NCBI GenBank assembly: GCA_963792585.1
Contig: CAWBWI010000001.1
Coordinates: 1,376,001 to 1,440,000, forward strand
Reading direction: 5' to 3'
DNA: 64,000 nt
Source of the DNA: Candidatus Eiseniibacteriota bacterium
GTDB lineage: Bacteria; Eisenbacteria; RBG-16-71-46; CAIMUX01; VGJL01
The notes below the pieces were generated by a model. It saw nothing but the letters and a program-made list of their open reading frames with translations, was not told where the DNA came from and ran no database searches. Shown here piece by piece: positions 31,732 to 51,944 of this stretch. Each line of letters begins with the position of its first letter. The stretch's first letter is position 1. The position numbers and the translations under genes are program-made.

Positions 31732-32204
31732 GCCTCGTCGACCACTCGAAGACCTCGGCGCCGGCACCATGCCTGATGACGACGCTCCCGAGGCCGCATC
31801 CGCGCAATCTGACGTGCGGTCGCATGATCGTAGCCAAGGACGTGGAGCGTGCCGTGGATCAGCATCCGGGCGATCTCGTCGCTCAGGGTCATCCGGCGTT
31901 CGCGCGCCGCGCGCGCGCACACCGGCACGCAGATGACGATTTCTCCAACGGGTACTGCGGAGGCGGGAAGCCCGGGCGGCGGCGCGCCGAGGGGAAAGGA
32001 CAGAACGTCGGTCGGCGCATCCTCCTCCATCCAGACGCGATTCAGGCGGCGGATCGTGCGTTCGCCGACGAGGACCACGTTGACCCCTCGCGGTTCTCCT
32101 TCCGCATCCAGGATCCGGTTGAGGAGGAGGCGGATCTCAGCCCTATGGGGCCGTGCCCCTCGTTGTCGATTCGCGATCCCGAGCGGTCGGGCTTCGTTTC
32201 GCAT
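31728..32204 (-). CDS. ybeY: rRNA maturation endoribonuclease YbeY
   Basis: PTDVLSFP, GEIVIC, HGTLHVLGYDH. Confidence 0.93.
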   Translation of the reverse strand: MRNEARPLGIANRQRGARPHRAEIRLLLNRILDAEGEPRGVNVVLVGERTIRRLNRVWMEEDAPTDVLSFPLGAPPPGLPASAVPVGEIVICVPVCARAARERRMTLSDEIARMLIHGTLHVLGYDHATARQIARMRPRERRHQAWCRRRGLRVVDEA

Positions 32205-34357
32205 CGTCCTCCGGTCCCTGGTAAGCGGTTCGAGCGTGGAAGAAGGCGGCGAGGACCGGAACGAGAGCGTCCCGGATCCGGGCCAGATCGCTGAGCGTCA
32301 GCTCGCTGTCGTCCAGATCACCGTCCGCCAGGCGTGTTTCGAGGACCTTCACCACGACTCCCTTGATCCGGCTGGGAGTCGGCTCCTCCAGAGCCCGGGA
32401 CGCGGCATCGACCTGGTCGGCGATCATCACCAGGGCGGCCTCCCGGAATTGCGGTCTCGGTCCCGGATACCTGTACTCCTCCTCCCGGGCACCGGTGTCC
32501 TGGCGCCGCGCCTTGTGCCAGAAGAAGGCCATCAGCGAGTTCCCATGATGCTGCCGGATTCCTTCCACCACGATGTGCGGCAGCTTCTCCCGCGCGGCGA
32601 GCGCCACCCCCTCACGCACGTGGGATTCCAGGATCAACCGACTCATCGAGGGCGATAGCTTGTCGTGGGGGTTCCGCCGACCCGCCGAGATGTTCTCGAT
32701 GAAGTAGCCGGGCTTCGCGACCTTCCCGATGTCGTGGTAGTAACCGATCACGCGCGAAAGGAGCGGGTTGCCTCCCCCGACACGCGCGGCGGTCTCCGCG
32801 AGCGTGCCGACCATGAGAGCATGGTGGTAGGTTCCCGGCGCCTCGACCATCAACCGGCGCAGGAGCGGGCGGTTCAGGTCCGACAATTCGAGCAGGGTGA
32901 TGTCGGAGCACTTCCGGAAGAGATGCTCCGCGAGCGGAATCACGAAGATCGCCAACCCTGCGGTCAGGATCGGGTTCGCGGCCGCAGCGACAGCGTCGCG
33001 CAGCAGATCGTGCGGCGCCTGAGAATGAGCCAAAGCGAGGGCTACGAGCGTGACCAGGTGCGCCGCCGGGACGTAGAGCACCAGCCGATAGAACTTCCCG
33101 CCGGTGCCGCAATCCGCGAACGCAGAAGATCGCGGTCACCGTGCCCACCCCGAGGACAGCCATGGTCGGCGCCCCCATTTCGGCGATCAGGCCGATCAAG
33201 CCCGTCAAAGCGAGTCCTACGACCAGGGCAAGGCGCTGATCGAAGAGCATCGCCACAAGGATCGGCGCCGCCGCCACAGGGGCCATCAGGGGAGGCAGAT
33301 CGAGGACGTGGAGGAAGAGACCGGATAGACCCATCACCGCCGCGCAGGTGTAGGAGAGGAGGGCCAGATCCCCGAGCCGCGTATAGATCTCCGGGCGCAG
33401 GAATTTCAAGTAGAAGGCGAAAGCGCCGACGGCGATGAGGAGCAGCAGCAGGCGCCCCACCCAACCACCAAGTTGCACCCACGGGGTGCCGATCTCGCGT
33501 TGCGCCCTCCAGTGGTCGTAGCTATTGAGCTTGCTCAGGAGTTCCGGAGTGATCCGCTCGCCCGCCACGACGATCCGCTCGCCCTGCTGAACGCGAAGGG
33601 CGATCGGGTCGACCCCCTCTCGCGCCGACTGTCGCAGATCCTCCGTGCCCTCGGCGTCGAAGAGGAGGTTCGGATGCGCAAACCGCGCAACGAGCTCCTC
33701 GAGCGGCGCCGGCTCGAGTCCTCGCGCGAGGGCCCGATTACGGGCGAGCTCACGCAGGCGCGAGGGCGTCTGCACCTGATCCCCGCTGAGACGACGGACG
33801 CCCTGAGCGTCCCGGACCTGGACTTCCGACCCGTCGCGGAGCATCGGTTCGATGCGTTCCTCGACGAGTCCGCGATCAAGCGCGTCCTGCAGCAGAGACT
33901 CGGCTTGGTCGAAGGTCGGTTGCGGGTCCTTTGCGAGCATGAGCCAGACAAGGAGGGTCTCGTTGAGTTTCACTTCCGGATCGAGCGCCTTGTGGCGCGT
34001 GCCGCTGCGCACCCGTCCGACCATCGAGCGGAAGTCGCCGAACTCCGCGAAACTGCGCTCGGAAATCGAGTCGGCGAGATTGACCGCAATCGGGCTTCCG
34101 GAAGCCGACGCGGCCCGCTCCTGCTCGAGGGAGCTCGGATCCTTCAAGACTGGGAATTCGAAGTCGGCGATCACCGTCCGCGGCGCCCGCTCTCCCAGGC
34201 GGAGCTTGAGCGCACCGCGACCGAATTGCGGAGGGAAGAGGGCGATTCCCGCCAGCAGCAGCGGCAGGAGCACGACCGCCCGCGCCAAGAAGGGGCGGCG
34301 GAGAATCGAGGCGCGCGTCCTCATCAGGAACGCGGGCCCGCCGACGCCGGGCTCCAT
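32143..34357 (-). CDS. 7TM-HDIG phosphohydrolase (PgpH-like), frameshift at about 33090
   Basis: 7TMR-HD extracellular domain, 7TM region, LLELSDLNRPLL, EAPGTYHH, YYHDIGK, QHHG, YRYPGPRPQ. Confidence 0.9.
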
Positions 34358-35845: not shown

Positions 35846-36124
35846 TGCTTCGCGTTCTCCTCGGCCGGAGTCCCACCGACTTCCTTCTTCAACTGGTCGC
35901 GCTCCTCGGTCAACCGAGCGAGCCGCGTCTTGTTCTGCTCGAGGTTGAGCTTGAACCGATTATAGTCCGTCCTCTCCGCCTCGACATTGCCGCGCGCGGC
36001 GTCGCGCACGTCCGACGCCAGCTCGATCTGCGCAGGGATCATCATGCACGGCTTCGTGCCCGCCGCGCACCCGGCCAAACCGAGGAGTGTCAGGGCCGCG
36101 ACCCAACCCACGTTGCATCTTCAT
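35842..36124 (-). CDS. Small coiled-coil lipoprotein
   Basis: LLGLAG-C lipobox and a heptad-rich C-terminus. The RBS-backed ATG at 36124 is out of frame, suggesting an indel. The in-frame GTG is at 36111. Confidence 0.6.
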
Positions 36125-36167
36125 GCGTATCCTCCCAACGGCCATACGGCCGGTGCAACAGCCGATA

Positions 36168-36926
36168 CTATCCGAAGCGAACCTCGGTGACCACATAGGT
36201 GCCGCCCGAGCGCTGATCGCGCGTGATCTGGACGAGCCCGCCTGCGCCGCCTCCTCGAGCAGCTCGCTGAACGACCGGAACCCGTAGGCGCTCTCGCTGA
36301 AGGTCGGCTTCTTGCGCTTGATCGTGTCCTTGATCATCGAGGACTCCAGAGGACTTCCTTGTTCTCGCGCAGGAGCGCCCCGATCGCGTCGAGGAGGAGG
36401 TTGAAGGCCTCCTGCTTCTTCGACGGGAGCACCGCCCCCGTGGACGGCCTTCGCGGTCGTCCGGATCAAGTCCTCGTAGTAGAGGAACTCGTCGCAGTTG
36501 TCGGCCAGCAGATCGCTCGTCGCCTCGCGAAGCCCGAGCCCGATGACCTGCTTGTTGTTCTCCTTGAGCTTGGACACGAGCGGTGAGAAGTCGCTGTCGC
36601 CCGAGACGACGACGAAGGTGTCGAGGTGCTCCTTCGTGTAGCAGAGATCCAGCGCATCGACGACGAGCCGGATGTCCGCCGAGTTCTTCCCCGTCTGCTG
36701 GCGCGTGGGGATCTCGATCAGCTCGATCGCCGCCTCGTGCAGGTCTCCGCCGGTATTCCGAGTAGCGCGTCCAGTCGGCATACGCCCTCTTGACGATGAT
36801 CCGGCCCTTCTCGAGGAGCCGCTCCAGGATCAGTTGAACGTCGAAGGTCTTCGCCTTCTTCCCCCTTAGACCGAGGGCGATGTTCTCGAAGTCGATGAAC
36901 AGCGCGATCCGCGCTTCTTCCTGCAT
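36168..36926 (-). CDS. NYN-domain protein with C-terminal OST-HTH/LOTUS, frameshifted
   Basis: IALFIDFENI, KRAYADW, GKNSADIRLVVDA, VSGDSDFSPL, then IKRKKPTFSESAYGFRSFSELLE. Confidence 0.87.
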   Translation of the reverse strand: MQEEARIALFIDFENIALGLRGKKAKTFDVQLILERLLEKGRIIVKRAYADWTRYSEYRRRPARGGDRADRDPHAPADGEELGGHPARRRCAGSLLHEGAPRHLRRRLGRQRLLTARVQAQGEQQAGHRARASRGDERSAGRQLRRVPLLRGLDPDDREGRPRGRCSRRRSRRPSTSSSTRSGRSCARTRKSSGVLDDQGHDQAQEADLQRERLRVPVVQRAARGGGAGGLVQITRDQRSGGTYVVTEVRFG

Positions 36927-36957
36927 TTCCTCTGCCTCTCGGCCGGATCTTCCTGCT

Positions 36958-38758
36958 TCAGGACGAGGGTCCCGAACCTTCCGCGATCCGGATGTGTAGG
37001 TCCCGTGAGGTCGGCCGGGTCCACCGGCGCGGGGGCGCCGTCCATCAGGCACATTGCGCTCGTCGTCTTCGGGAAGGCGATCGTGTCACGCATCGACGTG
37101 CGTCCTGCCATCAGCATGATGACGCGGTCGAGTCCGATCGCGATCCCTCCGTGTGGCGGTGCGCCGTACTGGAACGCCCGCAGGAGGAAGCCGAAGCGAC
37201 GCTCCGCCTCCTCCGCGCTGATCCCGGCGACCTCCATGACAGCCTCTTGAATGTCCCGACGGTGGATCCGGATGCTGCCGCTCGCAAGTTCGTACCCATT
37301 GAGCACGAGGTCGTAGAGCCGCGCGTGGACCGACAATGGATCGGTCTTGAGCTGCGGCAAGTCTTCCTCGAGCGGCATCGTGAACATGTGATGGCAGGGG
37401 ACGAGCCTGCCCGTCGAATCGTCCTTCTCGAAGAGCGGGAAGCGGTTGACCCAGAGGAACCGCCACTCCCGGCGTTGCCTCATCGGTGAGCCGCGACGCG
37501 CCGACCTTGGATGCGGAGGGCGCCGAGGGCCCGATTGGCGGTCAACCTCTTGTCCGCGACGATCGCCGATCAGATCGCCGTCGACCGCCCCGCTCGCCGC
37601 GACCAGGCGGGCCGCCGTCTCCGCGTCGAGGAACTTCGCAAATCCCCCGTCGAGCGCGCCGGCGGCCACGCGCGCCCGCGCAAGCCCCTTCGCGCCGAAC
37701 GGTTTGACGACCTCCTCGAGCTCGTCCTGCTCCTTGCGCGAGAGACTCCCCCCACCGGGAATCACGAATCCCTTGACGCATCCTCCCGACGCAAGGGCGT
37801 CGCGGAAGACCCGGAACTCGCACGTTGCGACCGCGTCGGAGAGGTCGACGATCGGCATCTCGAATCGAAGGTCCGGCTTGTCGGTCCCGTAGCGATCCAT
37901 CGCCTCCTCATAGGCAAGGCGCGGGAAGGACTCGCGGAAGGGTCACGCCGAGACAGCGCTCATAGAGACGCGCCATCAGCCCCTCGACGAGGGTGAAGAT
38001 CTGGTCCTCGTCCGTGAAGCTCATCTCGATGTCGATCTGCGTGTGCTCCGGCTGCCGATCAGCCCGCAGATCCTCGTCTCGAAGGCAGCGCGCGAGTTGA
38101 AAGTATCGGTCCGCGCCCGCGACCATCAGGATCTGCTTGTAGAGCTGCGGCGACTGCGGAAGGGCATAGAAGCTACCCGGATGGACACGACTCGGAACGA
38201 GGTAGTCGCGCGCCCCTTCGGGCGTTGGACGCACCAGCATGGGGGTCTCGATCTCCCAGAACCCATGCTCGTCCAGGTACTCCCGGGTCGTGAGCGCCAC
38301 GCGGTGGCGCAGGCCGAGGATCGACTGGAGGGAGTGCGAGCGCAGGTCGAGATACCGATACTCGAGGCGGAGATCCTCGCCGGCCCCGATCGTGTCGCCG
38401 ATGACGAATGGGGTCGTCTCGGCGACGTTCAGAATCTTCATCTCGGATGCGGCGACCTCGATTTCGCCCGTCGCGAGGTTCGGATTTGCCTCGAGCCGCC
38501 CGACGACCGACCCCTTGACCGCGATCACGTACTCGGAGCCGAGGGAACGCGCCTTCTCCGTCAGGTCGGAAGAGCCTTGATCGGGACGGCATACGATCTG
38601 GGTCAGCCCCCCGCGATCTCGCAGGTCGAGGAAGAAGACCCCGCCGTGATCGCGAACGCGATGCACCCATCCCGTCAAAAGGACCGCCTTGCCTGCGTCC
38701 GCGGAACGCAACTCTCCGCAGGTGTGCGTCCTCTTCCAACCGCCGAGACGATCTCCAT
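36958..38758 (-). CDS. aspS: Aspartate--tRNA ligase, several frameshifts
   Basis: KRTHTCGELR, GWVHRVRDHGG, TPEGARDYLVPSR, LPQSPQLYKQ, RDEDLRADRQPE, YGTDKPDLR, GAPPHGGIAIGLDR, FPKT. Confidence 0.95.
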
Positions 38759-38760
38759 CG

Positions 38761-39135
38761 TCAGTCCCCCGTCCGTTTCGCGCGGGATCGCACCCGCGTC
38801 GACCATCGTGTCAGGATCGGTGCGAGAGCGGATCCGATCCCAGCGCCGAACAGATCCGCCGTCCAGTCGTAGAAACTCGAAAAGCGTCCCGGCACCAATG
38901 ACTGATAGAACTCATCCAGCGCGGCCACCGCGGCCGCCGCCGTCAGGGCGGCCGCCCAACCCGACGTTCCGGGCCGGCCGAACGCCCGGCGAAGCAGCCC
39001 GCCGAGCACCGCGTATTCCAACAGGTGCCACGCCTTGTCCGACCCAACCCACCCCCCCGGCGAACGAAGGTTCGGAATCGAGGAAGCGACCAGGATCAGA
39101 ACAATATAGACCGCGACGGGGATCCATCGAAGCAA
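38761..39135 (-). CDS. VanZ family membrane protein
   Basis: SDKAWHLLEY, DEFYQSLVPGR, DWTADL. Confidence 0.85.
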   Translation of the reverse strand: MLRWIPVAVYIVLILVASSIPNLRSPGGWVGSDKAWHLLEYAVLGGLLRRAFGRPGTSGWAAALTAAAAVAALDEFYQSLVPGRFSSFYDWTADLFGAGIGSALAPILTRWSTRVRSRAKRTGD

Positions 39136-39185
39136 CCGATCGCCGCCCGGTCGACCGGACTCTACCCCGGAAGGTGCGCGGGGGT

Positions 39186-39651
39186 TCAGATGCGCAGCTT
39201 CTCCTCCTCCTGCCGGATGATCGACACGACCTCCTCGGGCGTCTCGGCAGCGAGCAGGCCTTGCTGCAGATCGCCGGCATAGAGCAGGCGTGAGATCCTC
39301 GCCAGGATCCGAATGAAGCCGCCCCTTTCCTCGGGCCCCACGATCATGAAGACCAGCCGCACCGGTTTGGCGTCGAGGGCGTCGAACGGCAGATCTTCGC
39401 TGACGCGAACGAAGCTCACGGCCAGGGCGCGCGCGCCGGAGGTTTGCGCGTGCGGAATGGCCACGCCCCCGCCGATGCCCGTGCTCATGACCCGCTCGCG
39501 TTCAAGAAGGGACTGGGTCACCGCGTCGGGATCGGTCAGAACCCCGTCAGCGCCGAGGAATCCAACCATCTGCCGGATCAGATCCTCCTTCGAGGTCGAC
39601 CGGCAGATCCAGTCGGATCGAGTTCACTTGCAGGAGTTGCGACAGGCTCAT
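39186..39651 (-). CDS. PTS IIA (fructose/nitrogen-type) component, 5' frameshift
   Basis: RERVMSTGIGGGVAIPHA (phospho-His), FDALDAKPV. ATG MSLSQLL at 39651 is in another frame. Confidence 0.85.
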
Positions 39652-39777: not shown

Positions 39778-42700
39778 TCAATCGCCGATCGGAGTGCGGC
39801 CGATCCGGAAACGCGCCATCTTCCCCTTCAGACCCTTGCGTGAGAGTCCGAGGAGCGCGGCCGCGCGGCTCTTGTTCCCATCGCACACCTGCAGCGCACG
39901 CTCGATCGCGCGCCGCTCGAATAGCTCGACCTTGTTGCGCAGATCATCCCCGGCCGGCTCGGCTGTCTCCTCCCGCCCCTCGAGCACCTCCCTGGGGAGC
40001 AGTTCCGGGGTCAACACGACGTCGTCATCGGCGAGCGTGACGGCGCGGCGGATCGACTTCTCCAGCTCACGCACGTTGCCCGGCCAATCGTGGTCGAGCA
40101 GGCTCCTCCGAAATCCTCCCGACATCCCGCGGATCTTGCGTCCCGACTGTGCAGCAAACGACTCGACGAAGCATCCGGCGAGCAGCAGGATGTCGTCGTG
40201 CCGATCGCGCAGGGGCGGGATCTCGATCGAGATGTCGTTCAGGCGATAGTAGAGGTCCTTCAGGAATCGACCTTCCGCGACCTCGCTCCGCAGATCGGGG
40301 CAGCTCGTCGCACAGATGATCCTCACGTCGAGCCGCAGATAGCTCGTCGATCCCACGGGACGGATCTCACCCGAGTCGAGCAAGTGCAGGAAACGCCGTT
40401 GCACAGTGATGCCCGACTTGTCGATCTCGTCGAGGAAGATCGTGCCTCCCGCCGCTTCGGCGAGCAGCCCGTTGCGATCCTGCGTGGCCCCGGTGAAGGC
40501 TCCCTTCCGATAGCCGAACAGCTCGGCCTCGAGCAGGCTGTCGGGCAGCGCGGCGCAATCCACGGTCACGATTGGGCGGTTGCGTCGCGCGCTGGCCCGG
40601 TGGATCGCGTGCGCGAAGAGCTTCTTGCCGGTGCCGGTCTCCCCCTGGAGCAGGACCGTGAGATCCGTATCCCCGATTCGGCGGATCAGCTCGAGCAGGG
40701 CGATCATCTTGGAGTCCTGCGTGATCACGTCAGCGAGAGCGATCCCCTGCGTGAGCTTGCGCTCCTCCGGATCCTGGGTCGCCAGATCGAGCGCTCGGGT
40801 GATCTCGGCGGCGAGGAGCATCGCGTAGTTGCGCTCCGCGCGGCTCATGGCTCCGCGACCTCGATCGAGCTTGCGCTCGAAATGAAGCAGATGGGTCCGT
40901 CCGCGGACCGCGATCGGAATTGTGAATCGGCTGATCGGCCGCTCCGGGGAACCCGCGCTGACGATCGGCTTCAGGGCAAGACCGTCCAAGCGAATCCCCT
41001 CGAGCCCGAAGCGCTCAGGGCCGGTGGCACGGCGTCCGCGCTCGCTCTCGATTCCGCTCGAAGCGATGATCTCGAGCCCCTTCTCGTTCGGACGTGCCAG
41101 CATCGTCACATCGAGGTCCAACGCCTCGCGCAGTAGCATGAGGATTTCCGGAAGGCGCTCCCAGGCGCTCCCCCCCATGTCGAGGATTCCCTCGAGTCGC
41201 TCGTGAACCTCCAAACCATCCGGGCCCTCGTCCCCGGCCGAGACGCCCTCGGTGGTGCGAAGGCTCTCGTCCAGCAGTTCGACCCGGCGCGCCAGGATCG
41301 CGAAGGGCTCCGTCTCGGTGCAGAGTCTGCGCAGGGACTCGATCCGGGTGCGCGCGTCGTCGCGCCGGCCGAGCCTGATCAGACATTCGACTCGATCGCA
41401 CTCCACGAGCGCCAGCGGACGCCCCGCGTCGATCCGACGCAGGACCTCAGCCGCCTGGAGGAACTGGATCAGAGCCGCCTCGGGATCGCCCTGCACATCC
41501 AGGGCGATGCGACCAAGTTCCCCATGGGTGGTAGCGAGCGCCGGGACTTCCGCACGGGACCGGTGGCGGTCACAGAGCCCGGCGAGGGCCGCTCCCGCCT
41601 CCCCAAGTCTGCCGGTGCGCGCCCAGACCGTCGCCTGGCGGAGCAGCGCACGCTCCTCCTGGGCGCGATCCCGATCGTCTCTGGCCAACTCGAGGGCGCG
41701 GGCCGCTGAGCGCCCCGCATCCTCCCAGCGTCCGGCCAGCGCGGCCATGTCCGCTTCGAGCAGCAGAACCTCGACCATCAGATCGCCGCGGGGCGCCATC
41801 GCCTCGACCCGCATCCGGAACTGCCCCGCCAGCCTGTCGGCTTCATCGAGGCGCTCCTCGACGAGGTTCAGGCGTGCCTCTTCCAGAAGCAGGAGGCAGC
41901 GCTCGCGTTCGGGGAGCAGGTGCCCTTCAGCGGGCCGGCACTCGTCGAGCGCCGCGCGCGCCTGCTCGGTCATGAGCACCGCACGGGAGAGCTTGGCGAG
42001 CGCCAACCTGGCCCGCATGGTTCGCGTCGCGTCGCCCGTTTCGATCGCGAGCTTCAGTCCCCGTTCGAACGAGGCCTTCGCCTCGCCGTAGCGACCGGTC
42101 TTGGAAAGCACGATCCCGAGGTTCTGCGCAGCGCTGACGACGGTCGTATGCTCGCCGAGCGTTGAGGCCAGGTAGTAGGCGACGTTGTAGTGCTCGGCCG
42201 CCCGCTCCCAATCGCAGCGCAGCTTGTGCAAGTTGCCGAGGTTGGTGTAGCAACCGGCCAGGCGCTGAAGATCCCCGAGCTTGCGAAAGACCTCGAGTGC
42301 CTTTTCGAAGTGCTCTTTGGCGAGATCCGTTTGGCCCGCGCGAATATCGGCGGTGCCCAGAAGGTTCCTCGCGAGTCCGGCTTCCTGTTGCAGGCTCCCC
42401 TCGCCTAGCTCCTCCAGCGCGGCTGTCGCGTCCGCCCGCGCCGCCGAGAGCTGTCCGAGTTCGAGAGCCGCTTTTGCCGCGATCAGGAGTGCGCGCGCCC
42501 GCTCGTTGGTGGGTGTCGATCCGGGCGCATCGTCCAACGCGGCGCGCACGGCAGCGCGCCCTTCCTCCATCTTGCCCAACTGCACGAGACAGCGGGCCAT
42601 TCGCCAGGAGACAGCGAATCGATCCTCGGGTGAGAGATCGGGGGATTCCTCGACGTAGGCATGAAGCCTATCGAGGGCCTGTGCGGGCGACTCGAAGCCG

Positions 42701-42807
42701 AGGTCGAGATCAACGATCGCGATCAAGCGCTCCAACTCGGTAGCTCGATCGCTATTCGGATCTGCAGCGTCGGCGGGCCGTGCCCGTCTGTCGTCCTGAG
42801 GTCTCAT
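39778..42807 (-). CDS. TPR-repeat + sigma54-interaction (AAA+) + Fis-HTH transcriptional regulator
   Basis: About 500 aa of TPR-like repeats (e.g. CYTNLGNLHKLRCDWERAAEHY), a possible GAF-like region, then GETGTGK, ELFG.RKGAFTGA, FLDEID, DLYYRL, WPGNVREL and the HTH GNKSRAAALLGLSR. Confidence 0.9.
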   Translation of the reverse strand: MRPQDDRRARPADAADPNSDRATELERLIAIVDLDLGFESPAQALDRLHAYVEESPDLSPEDRFAVSWRMARCLVQLGKMEEGRAAVRAALDDAPGSTPTNERARALLIAAKAALELGQLSAARADATAALEELGEGSLQQEAGLARNLLGTADIRAGQTDLAKEHFEKALEVFRKLGDLQRLAGCYTNLGNLHKLRCDWERAAEHYNVAYYLASTLGEHTTVVSAAQNLGIVLSKTGRYGEAKASFERGLKLAIETGDATRTMRARLALAKLSRAVLMTEQARAALDECRPAEGHLLPERERCLLLLEEARLNLVEERLDEADRLAGQFRMRVEAMAPRGDLMVEVLLLEADMAALAGRWEDAGRSAARALELARDDRDRAQEERALLRQATVWARTGRLGEAGAALAGLCDRHRSRAEVPALATTHGELGRIALDVQGDPEAALIQFLQAAEVLRRIDAGRPLALVECDRVECLIRLGRRDDARTRIESLRRLCTETEPFAILARRVELLDESLRTTEGVSAGDEGPDGLEVHERLEGILDMGGSAWERLPEILMLLREALDLDVTMLARPNEKGLEIIASSGIESERGRRATGPERFGLEGIRLDGLALKPIVSAGSPERPISRFTIPIAVRGRTHLLHFERKLDRGRGAMSRAERNYAMLLAAEITRALDLATQDPEERKLTQGIALADVITQDSKMIALLELIRRIGDTDLTVLLQGETGTGKKLFAHAIHRASARRNRPIVTVDCAALPDSLLEAELFGYRKGAFTGATQDRNGLLAEAAGGTIFLDEIDKSGITVQRRFLHLLDSGEIRPVGSTSYLRLDVRIICATSCPDLRSEVAEGRFLKDLYYRLNDISIEIPPLRDRHDDILLLAGCFVESFAAQSGRKIRGMSGGFRRSLLDHDWPGNVRELEKSIRRAVTLADDDVVLTPELLPREVLEGREETAEPAGDDLRNKVELFERRAIERALQVCDGNKSRAAALLGLSRKGLKGKMARFRIGRTPIGD

Positions 42808-42827
42808 TCGCTCGCGCCTGTACTCGG

Positions 42828-43175
42828 CTATCGCTCGATGCCCAACCAGATCAGAACGGCGTGCAGCATCGGATCGGTCCAAACTGCCGACCGCCGAACA
42901 TCAAAGCGCGTAACGCGAGAACCGCCCACGGGATCCAGAGTCGGATCGTGAGGCGCCCGGAACAGGTTCGAGTAGTCATCCGGATCGCCACCATCTCCGT
43001 CGCCGCTGCCCGTGGGGCCACCCTGCGGCGGCTCGAAGTTGCAGTCGCCTCCGGGGTGACCGGGGGCCGGCTCCGCATACTCCCGCGACGCGTATGCGAC
43101 TGGGGCCGCCAGCGCGAGGCAGAGGACCGCAAGGCCGACTACAAAGAAGATCCAATGCGACTTACGAGGACTCAT
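42828..43175 (-). CDS. Small secreted Gly/Pro/Asp-rich protein (115 aa), candidate signalling-peptide precursor
   Basis: GAGGTG RBS, signal peptide MSPRKSHWIFFVVGLAVLCLALAAPVAYA, low-complexity core ...GSGDGDGGDPDDY..., hydrophobic Trp-containing tail. Ends 20 nt before the regulator start. Confidence 0.75.
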   Translation of the reverse strand: MSPRKSHWIFFVVGLAVLCLALAAPVAYASREYAEPAPGHPGGDCNFEPPQGGPTGSGDGDGGDPDDYSNLFRAPHDPTLDPVGGSRVTRFDVRRSAVWTDPMLHAVLIWLGIER

Positions 43176-43235
43176 AGCGCACCTCGATCTTGAGGAACCC
43201 ACCCAAGGTTGCGGAAAGCAACCCTTCCGGTTAGA

Positions 43236-43264
43236 AGGTTAGACCTGCTCACTGTGGGTGTCAA
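43236..43264 (-). promoter_or_regulatory. Putative sigma70 promoter for the small-protein/TPR-regulator operon
   Basis: Minus strand TTGACA-N17-TAACCT. The leader carries a GGTTGC-TTTCC-GCAACC hairpin. Confidence 0.7.
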
Positions 43265-43300: not shown

Positions 43301-43309
43301 TGCTACAAT
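43301..43309 (+). promoter_or_regulatory. Possible extended -10 promoter for the diguanylate cyclase
   Basis: TG-C-TACAAT on the plus strand. Confidence 0.4.
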
Positions 43310-43431: not shown

Positions 43432-44775
43432 GTGAAGCGGGTATCCGTAGGCTATCGTGATTTATTACAACGACTTCTGCGGTTCGAGGCTCTGACGGAA
43501 GAAGAGCGGGCGGCGCTGGTCCGCGCCCTCGCTGATCCGGCGGGGCAGGACCTGCGACCAACGGCCCACCGCGTTGTCCGCGGGCTGATCCAGAGAGGCG
43601 TTCTGGAAATCGTCGAACGGGGTCCCGATCCGGAGGGGCGCCGCCTGCGGCTATTTCACCCCGCCTCCGGTCTCCGCTTCTCGATCCAGCTCGACGAACC
43701 GGAGTCGACGGAAACCGTCGAGGTGGTTCCCCTTCCCCTGAATCCGGAGGTCCTGCCGGCGTTGCGAACCGCACTCGTCCGACAGATCCTGACCGATCAG
43801 GGAGTTGTGGTGCTCAGCGATCGCGTTGCAGGACCGCGGGAAATCATTCAGCGGATGGAGCCGACCCTAAAGGCGGCGATCGAAGCCGAGTCGGTCCGGT
43901 TCGTACCCATCGACCAGCCTCCGGGTGACTACTGGCGCACGGGCACGCCGGTGGTTCCATGTCTCGCCGAGTCGATCCTCCGCGATCTCGCCCGCGCGCG
44001 CAGCTATGTCCTGCGGGTACGAGATCTCTCCCGACTTCGCCCCGACGCGGCGGAAACGCCATCGACCGGCAGCGCACTCTACATCGGGATCGGCGACGAC
44101 GCGGGCGGCTGGCGCGCCGTCGTCGAGATCCATGATCCCCGCATCGACGCGTTCTCTCCGGAGAGAATGAGCCTTGCCGTCCTGCTCGCCGCGCACTTCC
44201 AGAACCTCGTCGCCACCGCCGTTCGCCTGCAGTCGCTGATCTTCTTCGACTTCCTGACGGGCCTGTACAACAGGCCTTACTTCGAGGACCAGATCGAGAA
44301 GGAAATGACGGTCGCGCGCAGGCGCGACCAGAGCCTTGCGCTCCTGATCGTCGACATCGACAACTTCAAGCGGTTCAACACCCTCTATGGATACGAGGGC
44401 GGGGACCGGGTCCTCGTCACCGTCGCCTGCGTGCTGAAGGCGGAACTGCGCGCGAGCGACACGATCGCCCGCTACGGAGGCGAGGAGTTCGCCGTGCTGC
44501 TCGCACCCCCGGTCGGTGTCGAGGAAGCGCGCGTGATCGCCGAGCGGCTCCGCGCCGCCGTCGAGGGTGAGGCCTTCCAGGTTGCGACGTGGAGTGAGGA
44601 CTACATCCCGGAACGGATCACGGTCTCGATCGGTGGTGCGCTTCACACGCAGGACGGCCGCTCCATGCGTGAGATCTTCACCGCGGCGAACCGAATGCTC
44701 CTCGAGGCCAAGCAGATGGGGAAGAACCAGGTCCGATTCGTCGGCGACGGCGAGGATCGTCATCCCGACGCCTAG
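43432..44775 (+). CDS. Diguanylate cyclase (GGDEF) with GAF-like and unknown N-terminal regions
   Basis: [19 protein letters not shown]-site [25 protein letters not shown]. No TM segments. Confidence 0.92.
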
Positions 44776-47370
44776 GCTTCGTCCTCAGTACTCCAGACCC
44801 AGGATCCATCCGGACCCCTGTCGAGCATGATCCGTTGCCCCGCCCGGACCTCCCCCGCGAGCAGCTTCTTCGCGAGCGGGTTCTGCACCTCGCGCTGGAT
44901 CGTCCGCTTGAGCGGACGGGCGCCGAACTCAGGGTCATAGCCCAACTCTCCGAGTGCCGTCTTCGCGGCGTCGCCGACCACCAGCCGGACCGAGCGCGTG
45001 TCGAGTTGCTTCTGCAGCGCCGCGAGTTGCAGATCGACGATTCGGCGGATCTCCTGCCGGCCAAGCGCATGGAATATGACGATCTCGTCGATCCGGTTGA
45101 GAAGTTCCGGACGAAAGTGGCTGCGAAGGAGCTCGAAGATTTCATCATGCAATCGCGTCTCATCGAGCCCGCGCGATTCATGGATTCGTTCCGTGCCGAT
45201 GTTCGAGGTGAAGATCACAATCGCGTTCGTGAAGTTGACCGTCCGACCCTGACTGTCGGTGAGTCGACCGTCGTCGAGAATCTGGAGGAAGACGTGAAAG
45301 ACATCCGGGTGCGCCTTCTCGACCTCGTCGAAGAGGATCACGCAGTAGGGACGGCGCCGAACGGCCTCGGTGAGCGCTCCCCCCTCTTCGTAGCCGACAT
45401 AGCCGGGGGGGGCACCGAGAAGGCGCGCGACCGTATGGCGCTCCCCGTACTCCGACATGTCGATGCGGATCATCGCCGCCTCGTCGTCGAAGAGAAACTC
45501 CGCGAGGGCCTTCGCGAGTTCGGTCTTGCCGACTCCGGTAGGACCCAGGAAGAGGAAGCTGCCGATCGGACGGCCCGGCGCGGCGAGGCCGGCGCGACCG
45601 CGACGCACCGCATCGGAGACGATCCGGATCGCTTCGTCCTGCCCGACGACACGACGGCCGAGTTCCGCCTCCATGCAAAGCAGCTTGTCGACCTCCCCCT
45701 GCAACATCTTGCTGACGGGGATGCCGGTCCAGCGCGAGATGACCTCGGCGATCTCCTCGGGACCGACCTCCTCCTTGAGCATCCGCGGTCCATCGGCGGC
45801 GGAGGTGATCTTCGCCTCCGCCTCCTCGATCTCACCGCGCAGCCGGTGCGCTTCCCCGTAACGGATCTGCGCGACCCGCTCGAGATCTCCCGCGCGCTCC
45901 GCCTGCTCCTCCTCGACCTTGAGCGCTTCCAGACGGGCGCGCCGCGCGTGGATCGAGTCGATGACCGACTTCTCCTTCTGCCACCGCTCCTTCATCTCCG
46001 CTGCCTGCGCGCGGAGCGTTTCCAGCTCCGATTCGACCGCCTGCAGACGGTCACGACTCGCCACGTCCTGCTCGCGCCTGAGCCCTTCGCGCTCCACCTC
46101 GCGTGTGCGGATCCGGCGGTCGATCTGGTCGATCTCGGTCGGCATCGAGTCGAGCTCGATCCGTAGCCCTGCGGCCGCCTCGTCCATCAGGTCGATCGCC
46201 TTGTCGGGTTGGAATCGGTCGGTGACGTAGCGGTCGGCCAGCGTAGCCGCCGCGACGAGCGCCGCATCCTGGATCCGCACTCCGTGGTGGACTTCGTAGC
46301 GTTCCTTCAATCCCCGGAGGATCGCGATCGTATCCTCGACCGACGGCTCTCCGACGAGAACCGGTTGGAACCGGCGCTCGAGGGCGGCGTCCTTCTCGAT
46401 GTGCTTGCGGTATTCGTCGAGGGTGGTCGCCCCCACGCACCGCAGGTCGCCCCGGGCGAGGGCCGGCTTCAGGAGGTTCGAGGCGTCGATCGCCCCCTCC
46501 GCCGCGCCCGCGCCGACCAGCGTGTGGAGTTCGTCGATGAAGAGGATCACGGACCCCTCGGCCTCCTTCACCTCGCGCAGGAGGGCCTTCAGCCGCTCTT
46601 CGAACTCGCCCCGATACTTCGTACCCGCGACGAGCGCGCCGAGGTCGAGAACGAGGATCCGCCGATTCTTCAGACCCTCGGGCACGTCGCCCGCGACGAT
46701 CCTGCGGGCGAGCCCTTCCACGATGGCGGTCTTGCCCACACCGGGGTCGCCGATCAGGACCGGGTTGTTCTTGCGCCTGCGCGAGAGCACTTGAAGCACG
46801 CGTCGGATCTCGGTGTCCCTGCCGATGACGGGATCGAGTTCCCCTTTGCGGGCGGCCTCGGTCAGATCGCGGCAATAACGGGTGAGCGCCTCGTACTTTT
46901 CCTCGGGATTCTCGTCGGTCACGCGCGCACCTCCGCGAACCTCGGCGAGGACGCGCAGGAGAAGCTCCTCGGTCAGGCCGGCGCGTCTGCAGGCCCTCCC
47001 CGTCTCCCCCCTCCTTCACGATCGCCAGCAGCATGTGCTCGGTCGAGACGAAGTCGTCCTTCATTCTCTCGCGCTCCGCATCGGCCTCGTCGAGGACCTT
47101 GCGCAGCGCCGGATCGATGTAGACGTCCGCAGTTCCCGTGACGCGGGGCTCACGCTTCAGAAGATCGCGTTGAGCCTGCTCGATGGCCCCACGCTCGATC
47201 CCGGCGCGCTCCAGCAGTCGGGCGGGAAGCCCCTCGCGGTCGTCGATCAGCGCGAGCAGGAGATGCGCGGGGACCAACTTCTGGTGCTCATCCTCCCGCG
47301 CGATCCGCTGGGCCTGCTGGATCGCTTCCTGCGCCTTGACGGTCAGCTTCTCAGGGCGGAATCCGGCCAT
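44772..47370 (-). CDS. clpB: Chaperone ClpB, frameshift at about 46990
   Basis: Clp-N domain ([11 protein letters not shown]...FVSTEHMLL), NBD1 GDPGVGKT, middle coiled coil, NBD2 [16 protein letters not shown]. Confidence 0.95.
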
Positions 47371-47385
47371 GGCACACCTCACAGC

Positions 47386-50300
47386 CTATCGAACGCGCGC
47401 CAGCTTCTCGATCTTGGTCAGGCTCCCCTTCGGCGTCTGCACGAAGAGCTTGTAGAAATAGAGGCCGTTGCCGACCGCATCGCCGTCGGCGTCGGTCCCG
47501 TCCCAATCGACCGGGGGATCGCTCGCAAGCTGCCGGGATGGGAGGTTATCGAGCGTCTGGATCAGCTTGCCGCTCGTCGTGTAGATCTTGATCGTCACCC
47601 GCGTCGCCGGCTCACCCAGGAGATAGAAGATCGACGTCCGCTCTGCGAACGGATTCGGGACGTTGTAGAGATCGAGGATCTCGTGCGTCAACTCGGTCTC
47701 GACCCGCCGTTCGATCCGGTAGTCGAAGCCGTCCGGTTGAGCGATCTTCAGGCTCAGGACCGCCTGCCCCCCCATCGGGACGGGATCCAGCATCGTAATC
47801 CGCCAGGTGCGCGCACGCCCATCAACCGGATCGGATGGTCGCGCACGCACCGGAACGACGGTCCCACCCGCCCGCATCTCGAAGTCGTCGACCGCGAGAT
47901 AGCGCGGCGCGTCCACGTTGACCCGCACCGAATCTTCCTCGAGAACCCTCGCCCCATCGTCGAGCGTGGCCCAATCGCTCCCCGGCTTCTTGACCTGGAA
48001 GACGGCGTCGAGCCGCACGGGGAAGGTCATGGTCGAGATCCGGCCGTTCGCGTCCTCGGCGGAGAGGATAAGATTGTAGGTCCGCGGCATGACGGTCGTT
48101 CGATAGACCGCTCGGAAGTGGCGATCGTCGGCCCCCGGGATCACGGAATCGGGTTCGGCGACCCCGCCTACGTCCTGGATCGAGAGGGATCGCGCCCATA
48201 CCTCGTCGCAGACCTGGGCCGCGATGTCGATCGAGTCGCGATCGAATGGGAGAATGAGGGGTTGCCCCGCCTGTGCGGGCTGGCCGTCGATCGTCGCCGC
48301 GATTGCGGGCGGGGCGGCGTCCATGACGAGCCCCGGATCGCCGAACATCCCGTACGTGGCCGACATGCTCTTGTAGGTCAAGGATCCGGATCCCGAGGCG
48401 ACGAGGTCGCGCTTCGACGCGCTCAGAACCTCGCCGAGGATCCAGCGGGTGTGCCCCCCCTCCGCGGGGGGCGGCGGATCGATCGGCGGGCTGCGGAAGA
48501 ACGATCGCATCAGCGAGATACAGAAGACATCGCTCGACGGGATCCACTCGTATCCGCTCGAGGCGATCGATCCGATTCCCGCCCGGTCGTCTTCGGCTCC
48601 CGTCGAAGGAGGATCGTAGCCGAAGGCGATCAGGTTCTCGCCGATGCCGTCCCCTTTCCCGGGGAGGCCCTCGTTGAACGCCGCGAACTCGTTCAGGTGG
48701 CAGCCGAACCCCATGAAGAGGAAGGGACGGCCGAGATTCGATAGGAGGGAAACGTCCTCCCGGCCCGACAGTGGGGAGTGCCGGAAGATGTACTCGTGAC
48801 CCATGAGGCGCCCGTTCGCATGCCCCGTGTAGCTGACGATCAGGTGTCCCCGACCCATCGCCTGGAGCAGCAAATCGCGAACGACCGAGCCTCCGTACTC
48901 GAAGTTCGTGATCCAGTCGGCGCTCCCGTTGTACTCGACGCAGCGACCGGACGTGGGGTCACGGCGAGCGCAGCGGCCGAGCGCAGCGACCGTATCCATG
49001 TACGCGGCGACCGCGAACGAATCGGCCGAGAAGCCGCACTGAGGGCCTTGGTCGGCGATCAACGCCATCGACTCTCGACCCGTCAAGGCGAAGACGGCTT
49101 CGTCTCCGAACCCGGGATGGGGCCGATAGGCTTCTCCACCGAAGTCGATCCGGTTGCTCCAGATGTCATCGCCGACAAAGAGCGCGCGATTGCGCCAGGT
49201 ATCATCGGTTGCGAACGATTCATAGGCGAGGATCTTGGCGACGGTGCGCTCGAGTTCTTGCAGACTGCCCGCCGGAAGTCTCCCCACGTGCATGTCGGGA
49301 AGGAACGACAACCTCTCCCCCGTGCCGAGCAGGTTGTCGACGAACCACTGGTCCGTGGTGATCAGCTCCGGCCCCTGCCCCGCATACGACTGGGAGAACA
49401 TGGTCTGGGTCGGCACCCAGTCGGGAGCCGAGATCGCAAAGCCGTCCGTCTCCCCCACCAACGGGTTGTCGAAGACCTCCGTGGCGTCTCCGACGAGACA
49501 CAGGTACGAGGGGCCGGGCGTATTTGCCAGGAAGAGCGCCCGCAGCATGGAACGGATCGCATGCGGCCAATGGCGCCCACCCGAGAACTGGTCGAAGACG
49601 TCCTCGATCGGGGCCACGAGGACGGTGTGGCCCTGTGCGATGCGGTGGTCGATGAGAGGCTGGGCCGTCGGGATCCACGCGCGCGGAATCACCATGACAT
49701 AGTCCGCCGGACCCTGCGCGAGCAGGTCGGTTCCGCCTCCCATCACGATCGCGGACGGCTTGGGCATGGCGCCCGCGGCGATCACCTCGATGCGGCGGTC
49801 CTGACCGGTCAGGGCGAACTGCAGGCGCAAGCGCCGGTTGGGACCGGTACCTTCGACCTGGGTTGCGGGGTCGATCGTGAGCGCCTTCGGCGCGCGGGGG
49901 TCGGTCCAGTCGATGCCGATCAAATCGTCCTGCGGCGGTTGAGGAATCCGGTACTCCGTGGGACCGGTGAGGTCGACGGTGGCGATTCGAACGTCGCCGC
50001 CGCTGAACGTGGGCCGGCGCACGTAAGAGACATCGAAGGAGACGAGCGCCGCCCCCTCGCTCTGGGGGGGCTGCGTATGAATGAGCCGGTTGCCCGTCTC
50101 GTCGAGGGGCATGCCTGCGAGGTCCGTCGCGTCCGCCACGTACTGCTCTCGCCCCTGGTTGCCGAACACGATGGGCGTGCGCGGGAGCTGCGTCGCCTCG
50201 GCGAGGCCGCCCTGAGACAGAAAGAGCGCGACGCGATGGGTCCCGCTGACGGTCCGGATTCCCTGGAAGATGGCGGAGAGGCTCAGCGGCTCGACATACC

Positions 50301-51618
50301 CCGGGAGATCGAATTCGGCTCGATAGACGCCAGCGTCCCCCTCGCCGCTGTACGCGTCGCCCCCGTTCCAGTAGGCGTGCTTCGTTCGAACGGTGGCCAC
50401 GCCATTCTCCATGTTCTCGGGCGTGTCCAGATCCGCCGCCGCCCCCGGCTTCATGAAGACGTCCCCCTCCTTCTCGAAGTGGGAGGTCCAGGCGTAGGAA
50501 CTGACGGGGGTCAGGTCCGCGGCGCCGAGCCAGCTCGATTCGGTTTCCATCCGCGCATTGGCGCGGTCGGACCGGATCCCGAGCCAGTAGGCGTGCATTC
50601 TTCCGTAGCGCTTCAGATACCATGGCGCGTCCGGGAGACGGTCATAGATGGTCTGCCCGTAGAAGTAGAGGGCGTCCCCGTCCGTCCAGGTGTCCGAAAG
50701 GTCGGCGTCGACGATCGTGATCGGAACCTCGACGGTGTCCTCGGGCGCCGCGTCGTTCGAATCATAGAAGCGTTCGTACAGGCGCAGGCTCGACAGCGGG
50801 GCCGCGTCCGCGTCCCATCCGGCCGCGAGCAGGTCCGCATACTCGACCTTGCACGGACCGCTCGTGCGGATCTCAAGCTTCACGGTAGGGCCGATGGGCC
50901 AGCTGCGGCGAACCGCCCGCGCGGGTTGCTGGGGCGCAGTCATCCAATTCCGCGCTTGCGCCGCATTGAGGACGCTCATGTCGAGCGAGCGTTCCCATGT
51001 CGCGTCGTCCCGCTGGACGGCCACCCGCGACTCGCGCGGCGCCCCGCGGATGAAGCGGACCTCGATCTCGACGCGCCGCGCCACCCGGAGAACGCCGGTG
51101 GACGCGTCCCAGCGGGCGGGGTGGACCGTGATCGGCACCGCGCGCACATACCGTAACGCGGTGGGGGATCCGCCTTCGGCGGTGGCCGCGGGATAGCTTC
51201 CGCCACCGTAGATCGCGGCGTCTTCGCGCAGGGATTCGTGATAGGAGGGAAGATCGTCCGCGCTCTCTTCATTCCACGAGGGCGTGGCGATCGGAAGCGG
51301 GCGTATCCCATCCCAGATCTGCTCCTCGAGGGGATCGGCCTGCACCACTGCCGTCGCCCCGGGGGGAATCGCAATCCAGAAACTCGCTCGCGGAAGGCGC
51401 GGCTCGCCCGGGTCCCCGATCGGCGGCATGTCACCCACCACGACCGTCTGATAGCCGGGGTGCATCGCGTCCGGCACGACGGTCGCCTCCGGAAAGACGA
51501 CCTCCGCGCGGACCGCATCCTCGGTCGAGGAGAGCAGGCGGATCTCCTCGAAGGACCTGCCCCAGACCGGCGTGGCGGCAACGCCGGCCGCCAAGATGAC
51601 GAGGACGAACGATCTCAT
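47386..51618 (-). CDS. Peptidase C25 (gingipain/PorU-like) with propeptide and FlgD-Ig/T9SS-type C-terminal domain
   Basis: Signal peptide MRSFVLVILAAGVAATPVWG, propeptide (GDPGEPRLP...IAIP), DVFDQFSGG, YLCLVGDA, VGRLP, catalytic-type SYTGHA and GFGCH, MFGDP, C-terminal NVPNPF...WDGTDADGDAVGNGLYFYKL...KIEKL. Confidence 0.85.
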   Translation of the reverse strand: MRSFVLVILAAGVAATPVWGRSFEEIRLLSSTEDAVRAEVVFPEATVVPDAMHPGYQTVVVGDMPPIGDPGEPRLPRASFWIAIPPGATAVVQADPLEEQIWDGIRPLPIATPSWNEESADDLPSYHESLREDAAIYGGGSYPAATAEGGSPTALRYVRAVPITVHPARWDASTGVLRVARRVEIEVRFIRGAPRESRVAVQRDDATWERSLDMSVLNAAQARNWMTAPQQPARAVRRSWPIGPTVKLEIRTSGPCKVEYADLLAAGWDADAAPLSSLRLYERFYDSNDAAPEDTVEVPITIVDADLSDTWTDGDALYFYGQTIYDRLPDAPWYLKRYGRMHAYWLGIRSDRANARMETESSWLGAADLTPVSSYAWTSHFEKEGDVFMKPGAAADLDTPENMENGVATVRTKHAYWNGGDAYSGEGDAGVYRAEFDLPGYVEPLSLSAIFQGIRTVSGTHRVALFLSQGGLAEATQLPRTPIVFGNQGREQYVADATDLAGMPLDETGNRLIHTQPPQSEGAALVSFDVSYVRRPTFSGGDVRIATVDLTGPTEYRIPQPPQDDLIGIDWTDPRAPKALTIDPATQVEGTGPNRRLRLQFALTGQDRRIEVIAAGAMPKPSAIVMGGGTDLLAQGPADYVMVIPRAWIPTAQPLIDHRIAQGHTVLVAPIEDVFDQFSGGRHWPHAIRSMLRALFLANTPGPSYLCLVGDATEVFDNPLVGETDGFAISAPDWVPTQTMFSQSYAGQGPELITTDQWFVDNLLGTGERLSFLPDMHVGRLPAGSLQELERTVAKILAYESFATDDTWRNRALFVGDDIWSNRIDFGGEAYRPHPGFGDEAVFALTGRESMALIADQGPQCGFSADSFAVAAYMDTVAALGRCARRDPTSGRCVEYNGSADWITNFEYGGSVVRDLLLQAMGRGHLIVSYTGHANGRLMGHEYIFRHSPLSGREDVSLLSNLGRPFLFMGFGCHLNEFAAFNEGLPGKGDGIGENLIAFGYDPPSTGAEDDRAGIGSIASSGYEWIPSSDVFCISLMRSFFRSPPIDPPPPAEGGHTRWILGEVLSASKRDLVASGSGSLTYKSMSATYGMFGDPGLVMDAAPPAIAATIDGQPAQAGQPLILPFDRDSIDIAAQVCDEVWARSLSIQDVGGVAEPDSVIPGADDRHFRAVYRTTVMPRTYNLILSAEDANGRISTMTFPVRLDAVFQVKKPGSDWATLDDGARVLEEDSVRVNVDAPRYLAVDDFEMRAGGTVVPVRARPSDPVDGRARTWRITMLDPVPMGGQAVLSLKIAQPDGFDYRIERRVETELTHEILDLYNVPNPFAERTSIFYLLGEPATRVTIKIYTTSGKLIQTLDNLPSRQLASDPPVDWDGTDADGDAVGNGLYFYKLFVQTPKGSLTKIEKLARVR

Positions 51619-51944
51619 CTTCCCTCCTCCGGCCTCGCGGTCCGGCAGGCAAGGCAACCGCACCGATCCCTCAAGAACTCGAACGGATAGATCCCCGTGT
51701 TGTGACCATCGCCCCAAAGGAGACTGATCGCGTAGTTGCCGACGCGGTCGACGCGGCGCAAGCGGGTTGCATTCGGGGCGTTCTGGGTAAGGATCCGGAG
51801 CACACCGGGACGGTCCCGCTCGTCGCGGCAGGCTGCGCACGGGCAGAGAGCCCGCAACGCAACGAGCGGATAGCGGCTCTGATGACCGTCGGGCCACTCG
51901 ATCAGAAGCCCCTCCTCGGGATCGACCTCGAGCATCGGCTGCAT
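51615..51944 (-). CDS. DUF971 / gamma-butyrobetaine hydroxylase N-terminal-like protein
   Basis: WPDGHQS.Y...LRALCPCAAC, VGNYAI...WGDGHNTGIY. GGAGGAGG RBS before ATG 51944. Confidence 0.88.
   Translation of the reverse strand: MQPMLEVDPEEGLLIEWPDGHQSRYPLVALRALCPCAACRDERDRPGVLRILTQNAPNATRLRRVDRVGNYAISLLWGDGHNTGIYPFEFLRDRCGCLACRTARPEEGR

Follow-up and report, generated by a model that had tools for sequence, protein, structure and literature searches.

We analyzed a 64,000-nucleotide stretch of the genome of a Candidatus Eiseniibacteriota bacterium (henceforth the window, C1:1376001-1440000 of a 5.4-Mb, 84%-complete genome) and found that a two-gene cassette on its minus strand likely encodes a peptide signal and its receptor, because an Asp in the conserved core of the putative signal changes in step with a Lys, K195, of the putative receptor. 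The upstream gene (42828-43175) encodes a 115-aa precursor with homologues at 56-95% identity, and the downstream gene (39778-42807), which starts 20 nt after the precursor stop, encodes a 1009-aa sigma-54 activator composed of tetratricopeptide repeats (TPRs), a GAF-type domain, an AAA+ domain and a Fis-type helix-turn-helix (HTH). The original prediction, made from the letters of the window, had read this pair as a cell-cell signalling module analogous to the RRNPP systems, and that reading is supported by the sequence comparisons reported here. We consider it probable that the activator is switched, in an RRNPP-like manner, by a peptide that is exported, processed and taken back into the cell.

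Precursor Genes Are Coupled to the Activator throughout the Phylum

A profile of activator residues 25-690 matched 203 of the 206 genomes of the phylum, including 121 of the 121 high-quality ones, usually with two matches per genome. The 130 loci that we collected were taken from the top of the match lists (one of which gave 150 of 363 profile matches) and are therefore not a random sample. Upstream of the activator gene, 126 of the 130 loci have a same-strand open reading frame (ORF) of 83-142 aa (median 107) whose N-terminus is hydrophobic and whose start is preceded by a ribosome-binding site, as selected by a filter that made no use of the core motif. The four misses, all without flank, comprise one partial ORF with GDPDE, two that were refetched as other loci and one at a contig edge. 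The expectation that homologues of the activator would be accompanied by a small signal-peptide gene, encoding a GDPD-like core and ending in aromatic residues, is borne out in the family. Among 647 long genes of the host genome used as a control, 111 had a candidate upstream ORF, 32 of them with a ribosome-binding site. The motif class [GA][DE][PAGNS][DN], which was defined after the precursor sequences had been inspected, occurs in 119 of the 126 precursors (11.7 on average and at most 21 in shuffles) and in four of the 647 control genes, one of which is this locus itself; the narrower G[DE]PD is present in 78 of the 126 (shuffle mean 1.5). No such precursor was found at the 22 non-TPR sigma-54 activators of the host genome, where one unrelated candidate ORF was seen, or at nine other long TPR proteins, all of which lack the R301 of the family.

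The receptor tree contains two old lineages, A, which holds the gene of the window, and B. Pairing persists through ancient duplications and among receptors down to ~20-25% TPR identity, and shorter paralogues of 730-930 aa, a class without the GAF domain, likewise have precursor ORFs. A single genome can hold up to ~5 pairs with different cores. A contig scan with one narrow pattern gave 14 loci, a number that does not bound the range outside the phylum, and no relative was found in viral contigs with one narrow pattern. The ESM Atlas has precursor look-alikes in Eisenbacteria clusters, at a low recognition score; its look-alikes of the regulator, from Gemmatimonadota and Acidobacteriota, can be taken only as leads.

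The host genome has a second pair, of this shorter class, at C3:789934-792870 (minus strand), with a 771-aa open frame, an EDPDS-like core, a Trp tail and a sigma-54 site directly 3' of the activator. A full-length lineage-B paralogue at C7:1-1500 is truncated by the contig start, its precursor region lying beyond the contig. Separate ~1100-aa TPR sigma-54 activators, which lack both R301 and a precursor gene, are encoded at C3:845429-848674 and at loci L205-L209 and L211, and at L201 and L218 the upstream signal-peptide ORFs have the usual tail and no clear GDPD core, next to receptors that lack K195. The lineage-B precursors of L135, L143 and L145 are preceded 5' by a gene that we take to be Ppx/GppA-like.

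A Conserved Core in a Variable Precursor

The precursors share a layout in which a positive N-region and a hydrophobic stretch are followed by a spacer rich in Gly, Pro and Asp, the core, a linker that varies and finally the aromatic tail. The 115-aa ORF does have the features described for it: an N-terminus resembling a signal peptide, the core GSGDGDGGDPDDY and the tail VWTDPMLHAVLIWLGIER. Its ribosome-binding site GAGGT lies at 43181-43185 (minus strand), and such a site precedes all 126 family precursors. By heuristics, aa 1-29 (43089-43175) form a predicted Sec signal peptide with cleavage at AYA/S; in the family, 125 of the 126 precursors have a positive N-region and 104 an A-x-A-like site, although the Sec heuristic is not independent since the hydrophobic N-terminal stretch was part of the ORF filter. 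A lipobox occurs in one of the 126 and a twin-arginine motif in none, which argues against a lipoprotein or Tat substrate, and the precursor is likely exported by Sec. The aromatic C-terminal tail (aa 98-115; 42831-42884) is likely amphipathic: Trp falls within the last 20 aa in 104 of the 126 precursors, and hydropathy of a transmembrane level is reached by the tail in only 16. The precursor in the window matches no Pfam model, and a comparison of the 126 family precursors with NCBIfam gave nothing beyond one weak match.

Strong conservation in the family is confined to the core, G-[DE]-P-D (G 80%, D 75% or E 17%, P 73%, D 86%). Among 526 pairs at 45-75% TPR identity, the four core positions are 87-97% identical, compared with 46-18% over the six residues after the core and 7-21% at least 10 residues away. 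In the window the core, GDPDDYSNL (aa 63-71; 42963-42989), is from its conservation the putative mature signal, and D66 is its coupled residue; DGGDPDDYSNL is unchanged in all six close homologues (56-95% identity), with varying flanks. Clade-specific extensions of the core track the receptor tree, turn over at the genus level and distinguish the two paralogues in each of 25 within-genome pairs. Two G[DE]PD copies are present in 11 of the 126 precursors, and the extension is repeated in seven of those. One clade (L181-L185, L187-L189, L191, L193, L197) has the core GTP[F/Y]EEPE and receptors with N189G and K195L/M in common; the motif-bearing ORF of L197 has no clear signal peptide. N189G in this clade is consistent with room being made for an aromatic side chain.

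Co-variation of the Core with Receptor Residue 195

The best evidence for contact between core and receptor is the coupling of the last core Asp with K195 (codon at 42223-42225, minus strand), which lies in the predicted groove of the TPR. This pair scored highest (z 5.5) when nine core positions were scanned for mutual information with the activator columns (123 sequences, ~44 effective). Precursors with Asp are paired with K/R195 in 116 of 117 cases; seven precursors have Asn or Ile at this position, and residue 195 is uncharged in six of their receptors and R156 is lost in the seventh. For a held-out test we collected 73 further loci and dropped 19 (two without flank, two with an unclear core and 15 outside the family or without precursor). 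The remaining 54 comprise 32 with an acidic core residue and a basic residue 195, 15 with neither, seven with an acidic core residue and a non-basic residue 195, and none with a non-acidic core residue and a basic residue 195. On a tree of 180 sequences built without the coupled columns, Asp is lost in eight clades; K/R195 is lost in seven of these and R156 in the eighth. Among 47 conserved columns the runner-up changes in only three.

The co-variation between peptide and receptor that was to be looked for is thus present down to one residue pair. We infer from this pattern, which is that of a salt bridge, that the core very probably contacts the TPR directly, with its last Asp meeting K195 and R156 and an Asn ladder (N189, N229) holding its backbone. 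Core similarity was only weakly rank-correlated with TPR identity (partial 0.19; AAA+ -0.01); this relation, confounded by kinship, was not relied on.

Domain Architecture and Fold of the Activator

The ~1000-aa regulator starting 20 nt downstream had been described as TPRs fused to a GAFTGA-containing AAA+ domain and a Fis HTH, and Pfam matches and coordinates agree with that description (TPR_12/TPR_MalT; Sigma54_activat, residues 695-862, E 6e-59; AAA_lid_14; HTH_8, residues 960-1000). The TPR module (aa 22-520; 41248-42744) forms 12 helix pairs in a model with a predicted local distance difference test score of 96.7. The A helices of TPRs line the concave face of the superhelix; they hold 14 of the 18 conserved polar TPR positions of the family, and the conserved R156, N189, K195, N229, K236 and R301 sit on them. 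A GAF-type domain (~aa 531-680; 40768-41217) between TPR and AAA+, placed by an alpha/beta model and by GAF matches in 45 of 92 relatives, is an addition to the architecture first described and is a possible second input. The sigma-54 AAA+ domain (aa 695-862; 40222-40725) contains GAFTGA, G[AS]FTGA is present in 122 of the 126 family activators, and its fold matches NtrX, NtrC4 and FlrC at Z ~29-30. The Fis-type HTH (aa 960-1000; 39808-39930) has a recognition segment, GLSRKGLK, that is nearly constant in lineage A and different in most of lineage B. With AAA+, GAFTGA and HTH in the protein and RpoN encoded in the host genome, the activator fits the sigma-54 enhancer-binding proteins. The strongest 19-residue hydropathy is only 1.24, and the activator therefore has no membrane segment and is soluble, as had been stated.

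Among solved structures, the nearest neighbours of the TPR by fold are APPBP2 (Z 31.7), LGN (27.0) and MalT domain III (26.8), followed among RRNPP proteins by RapI (24.3), a phage Rap-peptide complex (24.2), NprR-NprX (22.4), AimR (20.6) and PlcR-PapR, with a lowest score of 16.9. The 60 best sequence matches listed include no RRNPP chain and so give no evidence of common descent with these receptors. Generic TPR repeats dominate the matches in a search of 1.84 billion proteins.

Proposed Mechanism and Alternative Explanations

In the mechanism that we favour, the precursor would be exported by Sec, and proteolysis would then free the core as a mature peptide of ~5-10 residues starting near G63. 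An OPT-family transporter in the host genome (Opp or OPT elsewhere) would take the peptide up from the periplasm, its core would bind in the cytoplasm to the TPR groove of the neighbouring activator, and binding would relieve TPR repression of the AAA+ domain. The peptide would be an agonist, which would give positive feedback in the ancestral promoter layout described below. Support is weaker for export, proteolysis, peptide length, uptake by OPT or Opp and relief of repression. Four full OPT-family matches are present in the host genome, and among 121 genomes OPT matches were found in 97 and OppC_N above the cut-off in 75, so that an importer is available in most of them.

Several points weigh against this mechanism. 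It leaves the conserved aromatic tail unexplained. The core registers of the 54 held-out loci were set by hand; the counting of kin makes the p value of that test too strong; the eight Asp-loss clades represent nearer 6-7 independent events because some of them neighbour each other; Asp is kept without a basic residue 195 in 8 of the 180 pairs; and core positions +4 to +7 show no co-variation enrichment on the groove helices. The top fold matches (APPBP2, LGN and MalT domain III) are not RRNPP proteins, and the palindrome and sigma-54 feedback layout is absent from the sub-lineage of the window (0 of 17). As to uptake, the Opp permease markers OppC_N and BPD_transp_1_N were not found in the 84%-complete host genome, and its two SBP_bac_5 proteins do not resemble Opp operon parts; neither importer family is universal, with none inside the cassette and none dedicated to it. 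A peptide acting between cells would in addition have to pass the outer membrane.

It is unlikely, in our view, that the cassette instead monitors export by the logic of FlgM or ExsE, with the core binding the TPR only when the precursor stays in the cytoplasm and thereby reporting Sec or envelope status within a single cell, with no re-import. Such a monitor would account equally well for the Asp-K195 coupling; it needs no importer, which suits the patchy Opp/OPT distribution, near-universal retention (203 of 206 genomes) suits a housekeeping role, and self-driven expression also fits negative feedback. However, tandem core copies and genus-level turnover of the extensions are more typical of released, kin-specific signals, and up to ~5 pairs per genome with different cores would be redundant for one export step. 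As the contact is common to the re-imported peptide and to the export monitor, direct binding is shared by both.

Quite improbable is a periplasmic protein, held by its amphipathic tail, that signals via a membrane partner, with the TPR binding something else. MalT domain III, a close fold neighbour, binds sugar, and the GAF domain is a possible small-molecule input. The tail keeps its character across the family, and the RRNPP propeptides described in PMC10075063 have nothing comparable. A receptor lysine that tracks a peptide Asp across clades would nevertheless be left unexplained, and no membrane partner was seen among the neighbours examined (GGDEF-like, PTS EIIA, VanZ and aspS). That the small gene is a co-transcribed or regulated neighbour whose product, perhaps a secreted one, does not act as a ligand is highly improbable: in early lineage A it does follow a sigma-54 promoter, as a target gene would, but the residue coupling is specific and the pairing is kept through ancient duplications and receptors at ~20-25% TPR identity.

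A wider proposal, which we regard as evenly balanced, is multi-channel peptide signalling across this phylum of lipopolysaccharide diderms: each cell would have several orthogonal GDPD-type pairs, whose peptides would be exported, trimmed, re-imported by OPT or Opp and sensed by enhancer-binding proteins, with autoinduction as the output in one lineage and a small RNA in another.

Comparison with Known Systems

Like the RRNPP systems of Bacillota and their phages (Rap-Phr, NprR-NprX, PlcR-PapR and AimR-AimP), the cassette combines an adjacent signal-peptide gene with a soluble TPR receptor whose fold is close to RapI, NprR, AimR and PlcR (Z 16.9-24.3). It differs from them in the 12 TPR pairs of its receptor, in its C-terminal AAA+/Fis sigma-54 output and GAF domain, in place of an N-terminal HTH or a phosphatase, and in the internal acidic core and aromatic tail of its precursor. 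According to PMC10075063, RRNPP systems have a Sec-secreted propeptide of 10-100 aa, a receptor of 250-500 aa with TPRs and genes -60 to 400 bp apart, and validated propeptides are 21-50 aa long. The activator does have TPRs and its gene is directly adjacent at 20 nt, but the propeptide is 115 aa (family 83-142), and within the 1009-aa receptor only the 499-aa TPR module falls within the size range. In RRNPPA systems, as far as PMC9765709 describes them, the host belongs to Bacillota and the mature peptide is re-imported by Opp, binds the TPR and alters receptor activity; the present host is an Eisenbacteria lipopolysaccharide diderm, and no Opp marker was found in its 84%-complete genome. Further likenesses are that a variable precursor surrounds a short conserved core, that cores are duplicated, as they also are in RRNPPA propeptides (PMC11343458), and that paralogues have peptides of their own. 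The cassette would work like an RRNPP system, but by these published descriptions it is not a member, on account of receptor size, propeptide size, host and output. Peptides of the AimR clan carry a DPG motif (PMC12700828), whose likeness to GDPD may be chance. Intracellular TPR peptide receptors have been described for Bacillota and their mobile elements (PMC10075063, PMC9765709).

No characterized system with this architecture had been known to the author of the original prediction, and our literature search, which covered few subscription papers and no supplements, likewise found no description of a precursor paired with a TPR sigma-54 activator. Activators of the NifA/FhlA type have a GAF-AAA+-HTH arrangement. 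The present protein shares the AAA+ fold with GAFTGA and the Fis HTH with NtrX, NtrC4, FlrC, FleQ, DmpR and NifA, and differs from NifA/FhlA-type activators in its 500-aa TPR sensor and dedicated precursor gene, an input of which we found no description. The nearest solved structures of the TPR by fold and sequence profile are TPR solenoids that bind acidic or degron peptides (LGN/Pins, kinesin light chain and APPBP2) and the TPRs of MalT domain III and AfsR. These belong to eukaryotic adaptors or STAND-type regulators, which, unlike the present receptor, have no cognate secreted precursor gene. HetR, the regulator of the PatX-PatP-HetR system, is to our knowledge neither a TPR nor a sigma-54 protein. 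In filamentous cyanobacteria that system turns an exported precursor into a short peptide acting on a cytoplasmic transcription regulator, which gives the transport logic proposed here a precedent among diderms; its peptide (HRGTGR; PMC12756182), an inhibitor that patterns the cells of a filament, is basic, unlike the acidic GDPD core.

If the proposed mechanism is correct, a near-universal diderm TPR peptide receptor wired to sigma-54 would widen both the range of peptide signalling and what can control an enhancer-binding protein, as an independently built RRNPP counterpart and a class of sigma-54 activators gated by an encoded peptide. The family offers ~180 natural peptide-receptor pairs and one specific testable contact, core Asp-K195, and is assayable in Escherichia coli without culturing the host. 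It is a potential source of orthogonal peptide-inducible sigma-54 switches and of cues to what uncultured Eisenbacteria sense.

Promoters, Leaders, and Regulatory Output

The operon of the window is preceded by a sigma-70-type promoter at 43236-43264 (minus strand), TTGACA (43264-43259)-N17-TAACCT (43241-43236). This element, part of the original prediction, is present in the sequence and conserved, but it fails a consensus scan (0 found), with a -10 box that matches 3 of 6 positions. TTG-N16-18-TAnnnT occurs 5' of 44 of the 126 precursors versus 1 of 126 in one shuffle, and among 40 loci printed the 10 nearest have the element at -89 to -95. The 5' leader contains a putative hairpin (43207-43224, minus strand) with nine predicted pairs in a five-sequence family alignment, four of which show changes on both sides. 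In four runs the operon is covered by RNA-library contigs of a relative with ~95% identity, and one contig spans precursor and activator. The contigs end at 43208 and 43198 in two runs, near the predicted start, and run through in the other two, which is a weak hint of a sigma-70 start. Such contigs neither rank genes nor prove transcription.

In 14 of 17 early-branching lineage-A loci the precursor is preceded, at a distance of 66-131 nt, by a sigma-54 -24/-12 site. The palindrome TGGRTAC-N3-GTAYCCA is present within two mismatches in 16 of these 17 loci (0 of 340 shuffles), ~130-200 nt 5' of the sigma-54 promoter where both occur. The palindrome, a candidate activator site, is in the upstream regions of L037-L041, L047, L018, L050-L054, L056, L059, L060, L017 and L020; the -12 boxes of L017, L020 and L052 seem degenerate. 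Palindrome, sigma-54 promoter and near-constant HTH together suggest autoinduction in this layout, the activator driving its own precursor operon; binding of the palindrome by a paralogue is possible. In the sub-lineage of the window the operon is on the sigma-70 promoter instead, and no sigma-54 site was found in the window. The host genome has 21 palindrome sites within two mismatches, none at the expected spacing before a sigma-54 site, and five close relatives gave one site only; with no palindrome-promoter pair here, a target of this activator was not found.

Lineage B has a sigma-54 promoter ~170-460 nt 3' of the locus in 61 of 89 cases, nearly always followed by a conserved leader starting GGAGGGGGG; no such downstream promoter was found at 30 lineage-A loci, and a search of eight loci against Rfam gave no match. 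At C7:1-1500, 3' of the truncated lineage-B paralogue, a sigma-54 promoter lies at 1090 with a conserved GGAGGGGGGACCTCC leader, which is a candidate small RNA.

Host and Genomic Context

Two BamA-type genes and LpxC in the genome identify the host as a diderm, in agreement with what had been surmised. Divergent from the cassette is a GGDEF gene (43432-44775, plus strand) with an extended -10-like TGCTACAAT at 43301-43309; such a gene adjoins the cassette in most lineage-A loci and is a possible link to cyclic di-GMP. Genes 3' of the activator at 36866-39569 (minus strand) are PTS (phosphotransferase system) EIIA-like, VanZ-like and, as we take it from the translation, aspS, and occupy the same place in closer lineage-A loci. 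They may be transcribed from a promoter of their own, a TTGACA-N16-TACCGT element at 39761-39734. Several housekeeping genes are broken across frames (32143-34357, 35960-37052, 36866-38711 and 44772-47382; presumably HD-domain, NYN-like and aspS genes, and clpB), probably by assembly indels. Farther along, 47386-51897 (minus strand) encodes a secreted Peptidase_C25 protein of 1503 aa with a C-terminal FlgD Ig domain.

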